A stretch of DNA of 64,000 nt from NCBI GenBank assembly GCA_963831685.1, contig CAWHRJ010000014.1, positions 94,612 to 158,611 on the forward strand, read 5' to 3'. Each line of letters begins with the position of its first letter. The first letter of the stretch is position 1. The DNA comes from an uncultured Pseudomonadota bacterium (lineage in GTDB: Bacteria; Myxococcota_A; Polyangia; Fen-1088). The position numbers were made by a program, and so were the translations under genes. The notes below the pieces were generated by a model. The model was not told where the DNA came from, searched no databases, and saw only the letters and a program-made list of their open reading frames with translations. Below, piece by piece: positions 20,824 to 21,860 of the stretch.

Positions 20824-20913
20824 GCGGGCGCTCTCACGATTCGCCACATCTGCGGGCCGCAAACATCCGCGGATTCAAGTGGCTGCGGCCCGCGTAGGGC
20901 AACATCCGCGAAC

Positions 20914-21654
20914 TCAAGTCGGGTGCGCGCGCGGCGCCGAGGCGGGGTGCTCGTCGACACGCAACGGACCACCCGCGCGCCTCCATCCGACGCGCGCCAT
21001 CCAGGTGGCTGGCGGCGCCGTCGCCGTCGCCGTCGCCGTCGCCGTCGCCGAAGGAGAGTCGGTGATCGCGGGCGCGCGCTGCCACCCCTGCCACCCCTGC
21101 CACCCCGAAAAGTACGGTCCCGAGCTGCGCGGGTCGATGCACGCGGGCGCCCGGAGGTGCTTGCGGAAGTTGAGCAGCACGTAGACCAGGCTGGTCCGCA
21201 TCTGGCGCGGCGTGGTCAGGGGGCGCGCGTGGTAGCGGTCGCCGACGACCTGCCCTTTGCGCCCGAGGGCCCGGTTGACCGCCAGCGCCAACCGGATTGC
21301 CAGGCCGTGCATACCCCCGCGGGCCCGTCGGGCTTCGTCCCCCTCGACGATGAAGTGGCCGTGGTCCTGCTGGATCGAGAAGTGAATCACCCGGAACCTG
21401 TCGACCGACGCCCGTGCGATGGCGTGCCGGAGCGCCCCGAACAGCCGCGGGGAGCGGAGCGACGGCAGCCCCGGCGTCGCCCGAATGGTGACCTGCACCG
21501 GGTATCGCGGATCGACCTTCGGGCGCGTGTCGTGGGGCATCGAGGGACGGCCGCGCGGTTTCCGCCCGGCGCCCTTGCGAGCGCCACCCCACGTGCGTGG
21601 TGCCCCGAGGGGCAAGTCGAGCTGACGCCGTCGCACCGTCTTGATTCCGCGCAT
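20914..21654 (-). CDS. REP-associated tyrosine transposase (RAYT) / IS200-like HUH Y1 transposase
   Basis: HUH-like HGH (IQQDHGHFIVE). Catalytic Tyr region (GDRYHARPL...LVYVLLNFRKH) parallels RayT/TnpA-IS200. The C-terminal tail is encoded by tandem micro-repeats (GWQGWQGWQ, ATATATATA). The overlapping alternative ORF 20834..21832 was judged spurious. Confidence 0.6.
   Translation of the reverse strand: MRGIKTVRRRQLDLPLGAPRTWGGARKGAGRKPRGRPSMPHDTRPKVDPRYPVQVTIRATPGLPSLRSPRLFGALRHAIARASVDRFRVIHFSIQQDHGHFIVEGDEARRARGGMHGLAIRLALAVNRALGRKGQVVGDRYHARPLTTPRQMRTSLVYVLLNFRKHLRAPACIDPRSSGPYFSGWQGWQGWQRAPAITDSPSATATATATATAPPATWMARVGWRRAGGPLRVDEHPASAPRAHPT
21016..21049. repeat. Hexanucleotide tandem repeat (GCCGTC), about 5.5 copies, inside the RAYT reading frame
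   Basis: A perfect (GCCGTC)n run. It encodes ATATATATA in the RAYT frame. Confidence 0.8.
21081..21106. repeat. Nonanucleotide tandem repeat (GCCACCCCT), about 3 copies, inside the RAYT reading frame
   Basis: Perfect 9-bp repeats. They encode GWQGWQGWQ. Confidence 0.8.
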
Positions 21655-21860
21655 GTCCCGTTGTCGGGCGCAGAGCGCGGCGGGTTGCGTGGTGTGAGGC
21701 CGGACGACCGCTGCGACGCGCCGCTCGCGTGACTTGATTCGGCGGAGGTGCGGTCGGCGGGACGCCGATGGGTTGGGCGCGGCGGCGCGCGGACGGCTCG
21801 ACCTTGATTGCGCGGATGTTGGTGCCGCCCACGATGTGACGATTCGTGAGAAGCGGGGCG

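Follow-up and report, generated by a model that had tools for sequence, protein, structure and literature searches.

A RAYT-like Y1 gene between terminal inverted repeats: a probable copy of a TIRtron-like transposon of Polyangia

Within the window, by which we mean the whole 64-kb stretch of DNA that was analysed, the segment between the ilvD and M50 peptidase genes is a TIRtron-like element, in which a RAYT-like Y1 gene lies between terminal inverted repeats instead of REPs. We consider it probable that this segment represents one copy of an autonomous, insertion sequence-like transposon ("TIRtron") of Polyangia (Myxococcota; Table 1). In a MAFFT alignment of the window sequence with 17 copies from one MAG, conservation climbed steeply at CTCTCACGATTCG and dropped past CGAATCGTGAGAG. 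The 20-bp terminal inverted repeat has one mismatch to the consensus and matched the window twice, as opposed to 0.02 matches expected. The same terminal 20-mer closes 126 element termini in metagenomes, and in approximately 1 Mb of related genome sequence the 20-bp inverted repeats were present at element ends only. A preliminary description had drawn the element at 20862-21820 and missed this outer repeat, which marks the true ends and therefore widens the unit to 20831-21852. It had rightly placed the element between two convergent genes: ilvD (plus strand, stop codon at 20821-20823) and the M50 peptidase gene (minus strand, stop codon at 21861-21863, contained in the right-hand CTAG) both read towards it. 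The 1-kb unit holds a single gene, encoding a protein of HUH/Y1 fold, and no other conserved gene; searched along its length, it gave no match to Rfam and no sigma-70 promoter or intrinsic terminator.

Table 1. Positions within the window of the probable mobile unit, its borders and its internal features.
Feature	Position	Strand	Remarks
Whole mobile unit, 1,022 bp	20831-21852	-	Sharp conservation edges in copy alignment; absent from the ilvD-M50 junction in relatives
Terminal inverted repeat, gene 3' end	20831-20850	+	CTCTCACGATTCGCCACATC
Terminal inverted repeat, gene 5' end	21833-21852	-	TTCTCACGAATCGTCACATC (minus-strand reading)
Flanking direct repeat, candidate target-site duplication	20824-20830		GCGGGCG; between the ilvD stop TAA (20821-20823) and the element
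Flanking direct repeat, second copy with one extra G	21853-21860		GCGGGGCG; between the element and CTAG
Gene for 246-aa HUH/Y1 protein	20914-21654	-	MRGIK...RAHPT; His98-Gly-His100 and Tyr158
Motif copy A	21803-21819	-	Subterminal, ~33 nt from 5' tip
Motif copy B	21733-21749	-	2 mismatches
Motif copy C	21640-21656	-	Contains start codon (ATGCGCGGAATCAAG = MRGIK)
Motif copy C'	20902-20918	+	Inverted; contains stop codon TGA
Motif copy A'	20863-20879	+	Inverted; 39 nt from C', ~32 nt from 3' tip
Hexanucleotide repeat	21016-21050	-	Perfect, period 6, 5.8 copies; encodes (AT)n in disordered linker
Nonanucleotide repeat	21079-21106	-	Perfect, period 9, 3.1 copies; encodes GWQ three times

The element is repeated within genomes. 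Our scan found 66 loci, all of them in Polyangia or in MAGs labelled "uncultured proteobacterium", and copy number in these Polyangia soil bacteria reached 19 in one long-read MAG and 7 in a second MAG. The repeats formed by the element fragment short-read assemblies of these genomes, with contigs broken inside the gene. The flanking 6-8-bp repeat was at least 85% identical in 9 of 20 copies, compared with 1.8% of mismatched pairings. A clear flanking repeat was seen in only about half of the copies. Between two copies in inverted orientation 22 kb apart (L003 and L004), the flanks CGGTGCT and CGCTCG have been exchanged reciprocally, the pattern left by an inversion between copies that were originally each bordered by a duplication of their own. 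The possibility that the 7-mer beside the ends travels with the element was rejected, as it differs between all copies and matches within a copy.

Beyond the repeat, a CTAG-like tetranucleotide stands 6-7 bp from the element on each side. CTAG occurred within 5-14 nt of 24 of 62 ends, as against 0.14% of random 10-mers, and in metagenomes it lay exactly 6-8 nt out in 64 of 113 distinct flanks. At 28 of the 62 ends we found the stop codon of a coding-like frame reading towards the element, a situation met at 0.8% of random positions. The tetranucleotides that flank the window copy likewise hold the ilvD and M50 protease stop codons. That CTAG might be a part of the element, supplying stops to truncated genes, was rejected for the window because both genes end at the same codon in a relative without the element (L072). 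This relative is one of four (L071, L072, L074 and L075) in which the ilvD-M50 junction is free of the element, and their spacers differ in every case examined (19 bp or 64 bp long, or replaced by an 11-bp overlap of the genes). None of the relatives examined offered an empty site with identical flanks, and a metagenome pattern search for the predicted empty site (ilvD end, TAA, GCGGG(G)CG, CTAG, M50 end) returned no match. A search of the window for regions orthologous to sequences flanking other copies recovered only a paralogous sigma-54 activator family.

Assignment of the encoded protein relied on relatives and on structure. The window protein had no Pfam match at E <= 0.1, Y1_Tnp (PF01797) included, and scored 17.1 bits with the NCBIfam RAYT model NF047646, for which the cut-off is 80. 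Seven of ten relatives at 40-60% identity did pass the Pfam Y1_Tnp threshold (24-33 bits, cut-off 23), so that the superfamily assignment of the window protein holds by transitivity. A profile of close homologues searched against PDB sequences gave nothing relevant. With close homologues as the sole input, AlphaFold gave a poor model (pLDDT 51), and the predicted structure used here is the model from diverse relatives (pLDDT 83.5). Its top Foldseek match was the Escherichia coli RAYT (4er8_A; target-normalised TM-score 0.62, rmsd 2.7 A), followed by the TnpA proteins of ISDra2, IS608 and IS200. The residues H98, H100 and Y158 were invariant in 33 diverse sequences. By its fold, its invariant His-x-His and Tyr, and its relatives that pass Y1_Tnp, the window protein belongs among the HUH/Y1 transposases. 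Of the earlier claim of a Y1 transposase, the fold thus stands, with the E. coli RAYT as its nearest match, but the Pfam and NCBIfam RAYT thresholds were failed and the PF01797 check proposed for the protein itself came out negative.

The HuH motif reads DHGH in the window and DH[LVI]H in the family, and the Y motif YVLLNFRKH and YVLxNxRKH, respectively. The window clade has Gly at the centre of the HUH motif and has lost the usual Trp, so that it is only putatively competent for catalysis. The protein also carries an N-terminal (WGGxRxGAGRKP) and a C-terminal (TWLxxGWRR) extension. Its family is large, with 4,802 clusters at 50% identity matching at E <= 0.001. NCBI labels it mostly hypothetical and often truncates the start to Met39, as in the public annotation of the window gene (208-aa product), and IMG calls some members "REP-associated tyrosine transposase". 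A distant member at 43% identity (L063) had no obvious inverted ends. The only gene of the element is under strong purifying selection: dN/dS was 0.06-0.08 at dS 0.13-0.22, and 15 of 17 copies in one genome were intact. Synonymous divergence between copies, at ~13%, is old for an active insertion sequence.

TIRtrons, whose transposases are termed TIRYTs, were described in 2013 (PMC3733652) and are treated under subclass 2.1 by Quentin et al. 2018 (PMC6006769). In the excerpts of these descriptions that were compared, they resemble the present element in having a RAYT-like Y1 gene with inverted repeats that are not REP hairpins, in repeats that may overlap with the gene at its 5' or 3' end, and in repeats that in some genomes also stand alone as singles, dimers or groups. 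The same excerpts (PMC3733652, PMC6006769) do not mention for TIRYTs a multi-copy unit (here up to 19), a 6-8-bp duplication or a strict CTAG-N6-7 rule. The ends found here, CTCTCACGATTCGTCACATC, are without the GGGGWSAS motif of most cases described in those excerpts, and the protein differs from the TIRYTs described there by its N- and C-terminal extensions and a Y---N motif without Pro. For subclass 2.1 the excerpts give a C-terminal HTH-like domain and the motifs NHVH/NH[YF]H and Y[IV]xLNP, from which DHGH in the window, DH[LVI]H in the family and YVLxNxRKH differ, in a comparison of motifs only.

Metagenomes also contain gene-less elements of 161-584 bp that have the same ends and CTAG signature, no 17-nt motif (see below) and unrelated interiors. 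One of these (L128) is a perfect case, CTAG GGGCAGC [element] GGGCAGC CTAG. Some metagenomic 20-mers are solitary, with no detectable inverted partner. Since the gene-less elements use the 20-mer without the motif, the ends alone suffice. This would also be expected if the window element were non-autonomous, its ends being recognized by an unlinked DDE-type transposase and its Y1 gene being a passenger or serving another role such as ssDNA processing or regulation. Terminal inverted repeats with target duplication are a hallmark of DDE transposases, and the inverted ends, the 6-8-bp duplication and the two-fold symmetric CTAG-N7-CTAG target are typical of DDE transposition. We nevertheless regard an unlinked transposase as unlikely. 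No such gene was present beside or inside the ~190 ends examined. The Y1 gene was the only protein-coding gene observed in elements with the 20-mer ends, and all coding elements carried it (38 of 38 metagenomic ones and every genome locus). Nearly all copies keep this gene intact and under strong purifying selection, as expected of a transposase and not of a passenger, and its start and stop codons are built into inverted copies of the motif.

The IS5 and IS481 groups are classical DDE insertion sequences that favour CTAG. They share with the window element inverted ends, a short target duplication, the CTAG preference and miniature derivatives that have only the ends in common. They differ in that the sole gene here encodes an HUH/Y1 fold, with no DDE or RNase-H-like protein, and in that CTAG lies inside their duplication but 6-7 bp outside it, on both sides, in our element.

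The 17-nt motif ACATCCGCGNAWTCAAG, allowing up to 3 mismatches, matched the window six times, compared with a mean of 0.76 in shuffled sequence; none of 100 shuffles reached six. Five matches lie in the element: relative to the minus-strand gene, two are downstream and three, oppositely oriented, are upstream, precisely as first described. The sixth, at 36823-36839 with 2 mismatches, falls within the coding sequence of a sigma-54 activator and was taken as chance. One copy embeds the start codon of the element's gene (ACATGCGCGGAATCAAG, encoding MRGIK) and another its stop codon TGA (CTTGAGTTCGCGGATGT). The motif was confined to gene-carrying copies, whose 5' ends hold one to three and whose 3' ends hold one to five, those at the 3' end being spaced with a 39-nt period. 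In the window a 10-bp stem (20852-20861 paired with 20884-20893) holds motif copy A' in its loop. A conserved subterminal hairpin presenting the motif was considered and rejected: helices of at least 7 bp formed at only 5 of 50 ends, and mean helix length was 4.8 bp compared with 4.0 bp in shuffles. We infer that the motif is a subterminal site peculiar to elements that carry the gene and, because the gene-less relatives manage without it, not a mobility determinant. Most likely it is a binding site of the element's own protein, acting in expression control or end pairing; the former is suggested by the copy that covers the start codon.

The arrangement had originally been read as a REP/RAYT configuration, in which a domesticated, vertically inherited RAYT is flanked by REPs and spreads these around the genome, as REPs or REPINs. 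The HUH/Y1 fold and the bracket of inverted motifs that this reading drew upon were borne out, and the element does resemble REPtrons (PDB 4er8; PMC5581495; PMC8266576): the E. coli RAYT is the closest solved fold, with His-x-His and Tyr conserved, the gene lies between inverted short repeats, and the adjoining tetranucleotide matters (GTAG in REPs, CTAG here). The IMG name of some family members points the same way, and the metagenomic gene-less elements and solitary 20-mers recall non-autonomous REPINs. Yet a classical REPtron is very improbable, as the motif is not a dispersed REP and the whole unit is multi-copy. Apart from the one chance match to the motif, neither the 17-nt motif nor the 20-mer was found outside element copies in the 64-kb window or in ~1 Mb of related genome sequence, so the count of the motif elsewhere proposed in the preliminary description yielded none. 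Taken literally, this result and the failed profile thresholds are the two outcomes that the preliminary description had named as refuting its reading. The gene here moves with its ends and occurs in up to 19 copies per genome, furnished with ends and flanking duplications of its own. RAYTs are typically single-copy, their groups averaging 1.3-1.8 copies per replicon, and REPs are dispersed by hundreds per genome (PMC5581495). The protein falls short of the curated RAYT model (17 bits, cut-off 80), the Y motif is YVLLNF as opposed to the Y---NP of class 2 TnpA(REP) (PMC6006769, Table 1), and the excerpts of the literature compared do not describe target duplication for REP or REPIN movement.

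Two perfect tandem repeats had been reported in frame within the gene, and we recovered both; on the minus strand, in the frame of the gene, they read ATATATATATA and GWQGWQGWQ. The suggested comparison of copy numbers showed that they do differ between relatives, with GWQ occurring one to three times and the AT run varying in length. Conservation of the protein is lowest where the repeats fall, and model confidence is low there (pLDDT ~50 at residues 190-210). Since GWQ occurs just once and the AT run is missing in most copies, the expansions are of recent and local origin. The repeats appear to have expanded in frame within a disordered linker that joins the catalytic core to a conserved C-terminal helix, with length change as the only consequence. 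Slippage had been proposed to alter the length of the C-terminus or to phase-vary it; the former holds, but units of 6 and 9 nt are multiples of three and cannot shift the frame. A contingency gene switched at its C-terminus is accordingly barely credible, despite the two perfect repeats and their variable copy number, given coding, in-frame units in a poorly conserved, low-confidence stretch and expansions that are recent and local.

Association alone suggests that the Y1 protein moves the element. To our knowledge, inverted ends and target duplication are not known for Y1 enzymes of the IS200/IS605 family, and a limited literature search found no description of a Y1 or HUH element with both. 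IS200/IS605 members (IS608, ISDra2, IS200) resemble the element in their Y1 HUH transposase fold, in occurring as multiple autonomous copies with just one small transposase gene, and in insertion bound to a specific tetranucleotide (TTAC for IS608). They work with subterminal hairpins and single-strand circles, lack both terminal inverted repeats and target duplication, and insert directly 3' of a tetra- or pentanucleotide. In contrast, our element has 20-bp inverted ends, no conserved hairpin and a 6-8-bp duplication, with CTAG outside the duplication, 6-7 nt off on both sides. IS200/IS605 Y1 enzymes act on single strands and leave no duplication (PMC6006769).

In the mechanism that we propose, the Y1 protein would be the element's transposase and would also mobilize the short gene-less elements that have only the 20-mer ends in common with it. 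At a CTAG-N6-7-CTAG target it would nick each strand 3' of CTAG, and the 3' ends of the element would be joined to the nicked target. Gap repair would then yield the 6-8-bp duplication and leave CTAG just outside it. That a RAYT-like Y1 HUH enzyme moves a double-stranded element with inverted ends by a nick-and-join route new to its class, targeting sites just past stop codons, is possible, and we advance it tentatively.

If true, this would be a new insertion-sequence family with its own miniature derivatives, one that homes to a few bases beyond stop codons. Such homing would be a built-in safe landing in GC-rich genomes, because CTAG seldom occurs there away from stop codons; the CTAG-N6-7 rule would direct insertions just past stop codons, often between convergent genes, and so amount to harmless-site targeting. 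An autonomous multi-copy element combining a RAYT-like enzyme with DDE-style ends and duplications would blur the division between Y1 and DDE transposition. With a 246-aa protein and 20-bp ends, it would offer a tractable system for the action of HUH enzymes on duplex DNA, and recognizing the protein family would improve the annotation of Myxococcota genomes.

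Alignment of the window sequence with 17 copies from one MAG showed conservation that begins abruptly at CTCTCACGATTCGTCACATC and stops at its reverse complement, with flanking sequences unrelated to one another. The repeated unit is therefore about 1 kb long (1,022 bp in the window) and has 20-bp terminal inverted repeats, which the preliminary description had missed. The element lies, as described there, between convergent ilvD (+) and M50 peptidase (−) genes. The 17-nt motif (ACATCCGCGNAWTCAAG) matched six times in the 64-kb window at up to three mismatches, compared with a mean of 0.76 in shuffled sequence; none of 100 shuffles reached six. 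Five of these matches are the copies already reported, two downstream of the HUH/Y1 gene (+) and three upstream in the opposite orientation (−). The sixth falls within a sigma-54 activator gene and was taken as chance. Paralogues of this activator occur near several element copies in other genomes (L009, L016, L029, L040, L050 and L053), the most likely reason being the large size of this paralogous family and not linkage to the element. Two further features had escaped notice: the start codon of the Y1 gene lies within one motif copy (ATGCGCGGAATCAAG, encoding MRGIK) and its stop codon within another. At either tip about 32 nt separate the outermost copy from the element end, which makes the ends long inverted repeats of composite structure. 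A 10-bp stem surrounds one motif copy in the window and is not general among copies, a helix of at least 7 bp being present in only 5 of 50 ends.

Coordinates of the element and associated features in the window
Feature	Position	Strand	Remark
ilvD stop (TAA)	20821-20823	+	neighbour gene, reads towards element
Flanking repeat, left	20824-20830		GCGGGCG
Outer inverted repeat, left	20831-20850		inverted pair with 21833-21852
Y1 gene ORF	ATG 21654 to TGA 20914-20916	−	246 aa, MRGIK...RAHPT
Perfect 6-nt tandem repeat	21016-21050		5.8 copies
Perfect 9-nt tandem repeat	21079-21106		3.1 copies
Codons 1-38 of Y1 gene	21541-21654	−	RTWGGARKGAGRKPRGRPS
Outer inverted repeat, right	21833-21852		inverted pair with 20831-20850
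Flanking repeat, right	21853-21860		GCGGGGCG
M50 peptidase gene stop	21861-21863	−	other neighbour, convergent with ilvD
Sigma-54 activator gene	36493-37968	−	FHA, AAA+ and HTH_8 domains
Sixth motif match	36823-36839		within sigma-54 activator gene

Scanning one genome per species for the element gene identified 66 loci, all from Polyangia or 'uncultured proteobacterium' MAGs, including 19 copies in the long-read MAG MFD05841.bin.2.137 and 7 in another. In short-read MAGs contig ends often fell within the gene, as at repeats. For 9 of the 20 copies having both ends, a direct repeat of 6-8 bp (≥85% identity) abuts the element, for example CCGGCGG (L011), CCGAGAA (L013) and GAGCGG (L010); only 1.8% of mismatched end pairings reached this level. 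Two inverted copies 22 kb apart on one contig (L003 and L004; CAVSAG010000004.1, ∼566 kb and ∼588 kb) have swapped flanks: L003 carries CGGTGCT upstream and CGCTCG downstream, and L004 shows the reverse arrangement. This points to recombination between the two copies, each with its own duplication, that inverted the segment separating them.

Directly beyond the duplication, on both sides, stands a CTAG-like tetranucleotide. CTAG is very rare in these GC-rich genomes (0.14% of random 10-mers) and was found 5-14 nt out at 24 of 62 ends. Among the matches listed, the exact terminal 20-mer had 113 distinct flanks in metagenomes, and in 64 of them CTAG stood exactly 6-8 nt out (7 nt in 40, 6 nt in 22). 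From this fixed distance on both sides we infer a two-fold symmetric target, CTAG-N6-7-CTAG. At 28 of the 62 ends, TAG, TAA or TGA closed a coding-like frame directed at the element (GC3 above 0.8 and no stop across 100 codons), compared with 0.8% of random positions. In the window these are the true ilvD and M50 stops, both proteins terminating at the same position in an element-free relative. Much of the genomic CTAG probably lies at stop codons, which would explain the placement of the element.

Four relatives lack the element at the ilvD-M50 junction. The spacer is 64 bp in L072 (IlvD 94% identical) and 19 bp in L071 of the 19-copy MAG (TGA-N19-CTAG); L074 and L075 have no spacer, ilvD and the M50 gene sharing 11 bp. 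Since the spacers differ, none of the four is a flank-identical empty site, and the empty site that would be predicted, sought as a pattern in metagenomes, gave no match. The L072 spacer (4966-5029) contains YTAG-like tetranucleotides at an 11-nt period with 7 nt after each (TTAG GCCAGCC TTAG CTCCGCC CTGG CTCTGCG CTAA), preceded by a 10-bp hairpin (CAATGCCGTT...AACGGCATTG). A comparable run, CTAG GCCGCC TTAG GCCTGCC TTAG GCTGC, lies directly upstream of an element copy in L023 (9618-9647). Such runs could serve as pre-existing targets, or could be traces that earlier insertion and excision left behind. L072 also has a 230-aa open frame of no Pfam family (2571-3263) between the MFS transporter gene and ilvD, which in the window are separated by 40 nt without this frame; it is unrelated to the element.

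A metagenome scan for the exact 20-mer returned at least 120 loci. Among the matches listed there were 126 instances of the 20-mer; 38 had the Y1 gene just inside, 60 were at contig ends, and 28 had room for the gene yet lacked it. The gene-less group includes inverted 20-mer pairs whose interiors, 161-584 bp long, are non-coding, unrelated and devoid of the 17-nt motif. These pairs show the flank signature of the gene-carrying unit, most clearly in L128 (CTAG GGGCAGC [177 bp] GGGCAGC CTAG). The 20-mer, not the motif, is therefore the shared mobility determinant. One miniature family, bounded by the same 20-mers, comprises L120 12271-12458 and L135 2713-2900 (188 bp each), L168 (197 bp) and L092 (250 bp), with related interiors also in L093; its interior is AT-richer, self-complementary (...CAGGAAGATCAAAAG...CTTGATCTTCCTG...) and unrelated to the gene-carrying unit. 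Further 20-mers among the matches listed head several differing sequence families with no inverted partner detected, and have ordinary genes as neighbours, such as a two-component system in L175. No protein-coding gene other than Y1 was found inside elements with these ends among the matches listed, which leaves the gene-carrying unit as the only candidate autonomous member.

The protein encoded by this unit had been described as a Y1 transposase. It scored below the profile thresholds, with no Pfam match at E ≤ 0.1 and only 17 bits where the NCBIfam REP-associated tyrosine transposase model requires 80, and a profile of its close homologues matched nothing relevant among PDB sequences. Taken at face value, these scores speak against that description. 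Even so, relatives, residues and fold assign the protein to the HUH/Y1 superfamily. Its family is very large, with 4,802 clusters at 50% identity matched at E ≤ 0.001 (3,084 at E ≤ 1e-10) in an exhaustive search of representatives, and 7 of 10 relatives at 40-60% identity passed the Pfam Y1_Tnp threshold. In an alignment of 33 diverse members, His98, His100 and Tyr158 were among the invariant residues, in the contexts F-S-[IV]-Q-x-D-H-x-H-[LF]-I-V-E and Y-V-L-x-N-x-R-K-H. The clade of the window protein has Gly as the middle residue of the HUH motif and has lost the Trp usual before DRYH, a probable reason for the low profile scores. The AlphaFold model derived from the diverse alignment was confident (pLDDT 83.5, pTM 0.76). 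Its best match among solved structures was 4er8_A, the E. coli RAYT with bound REP hairpin (target-normalised TM-score 0.62, rmsd 2.7 Å, 131 columns), followed by the ISDra2, IS608 and IS200 transposases; a poorer earlier model ranked them identically.

Family members are named 'hypothetical protein' at NCBI and 'putative transposase' or 'REP-associated tyrosine transposase' in IMG. Public calls (protein P0003 and other NCBI/ENA calls, 198-208 aa) begin at Met39. Conserved segments of the family are WGGxRxGAGRKP at the N-terminus and TWLxxGWRRxG at the C-terminus, and as the 38 omitted residues are conserved family-wide, these calls are truncated. Among copies, dN/dS over codons 39-128 was 0.06-0.08 (dS 0.13 in one genome, 0.22 overall) and 15 of 17 copies in one genome had intact frames, indicating that the gene is maintained. 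In L071 (contig_8993, MFD05841.bin.2.137; 500-3900) the minC, minD and MFS transporter genes are fragmented compared with the window and L072, which suggests assembly frameshift errors; the number of intact element copies counted in this MAG may accordingly be too low. L063 (9890-10702), a 43%-identical family member from a Polyangiaceae MAG with a canonical DHVH motif, had no obvious terminal inverted repeats in the 600 nt searched on either side, so perhaps only some members of the protein family share the mobile anatomy.

The Y1 gene could also be a passenger in an element whose ends are recognized by a DDE transposase encoded at an unlinked locus. Such an arrangement agrees with the DDE-like anatomy and with the miniature elements that lack the motif. 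Yet among the matches listed no DDE transposase gene was found with these ends and every coding element contained the Y1 gene, which is moreover under strong constraint, and we consider a passenger role unlikely.

A classical REPtron, the configuration originally proposed, is less probable still. Across ∼1 Mb around element copies the motif (≤2 mismatches) was almost confined to the units. In that length of sequence many occurrences of a REP-like family would be expected, and the REP reading of the motif therefore fails. Within units, one to three copies precede the gene within 190 nt in its orientation, the last on the start codon, and one to five inverted copies follow at a 39-nt period, the first on the stop codon. 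The 20-bp inverted ends were likewise found at unit ends only; it is the whole element, not the motif, that is the repeated unit. Its copy number, the undispersed motif and the failure to pass the curated RAYT profile all speak against a REPtron.

Tandem Repeats Finder confirmed the two perfect in-frame repeats, translated as (AT)n and GWQGWQGWQ. Both fall where the protein is least conserved and where the model is unstructured (pLDDT ∼50, residues 190-210). Their copy numbers differ between relatives: most have one GWQ, some two and the window three, and the AT run is likewise expanded in the window. Slippage would change length as suggested, but units of 9 and 6 nt alter length only, leaving 'phase variation' unsupported and a microsatellite contingency locus scarcely credible.

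To our knowledge, IS200/IS605 elements have neither inverted ends nor target duplications. The nearest described kind is the TIRtron, a RAYT-like 'TIRYT' gene between terminal inverted repeats that may overlap the gene ends and that are sometimes present without the gene at other genomic sites (PMC3733652; PMC6006769). True RAYTs typically come as one gene copy, their REPs being dispersed (PMC5581495), and IS200/IS605 ends carry small subterminal DNA hairpins (PMC6006769). In contrast to all three, the present element unites a Y1 gene, a multi-copy whole unit, target duplication and CTAG at a fixed distance. In the literature searched, no description emerged of a Y1 gene combined with high copy number, duplication and CTAG.

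The data show a mobile element of 1 kb that has inverted ends, a 6-8-bp duplication and a CTAG-N6-7 target signature, and whose one conserved gene encodes a protein of HUH/Y1 fold. Because the motif is specific to the gene-carrying unit and covers start and stop codons, its copies are best read as putative binding sites for the element's own protein, for auto-regulation or end pairing. The Y1 protein would be the element's transposase and would also mobilize the miniature elements. By analogy with Y1 enzymes, which cut beside a recognized tetranucleotide, a dimer may nick 3′ of CTAG on both target strands, so that the nicks end up 6-7 nt apart. The 3′-OH ends of the element would then resolve two 5′-phosphotyrosine links, and gap repair would yield CTAG-N7-[element]-N7-CTAG. 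This nick-and-join scheme fits the observed geometry, and, as a tentative proposal, HUH transposases may here follow a route that is new in mechanism.
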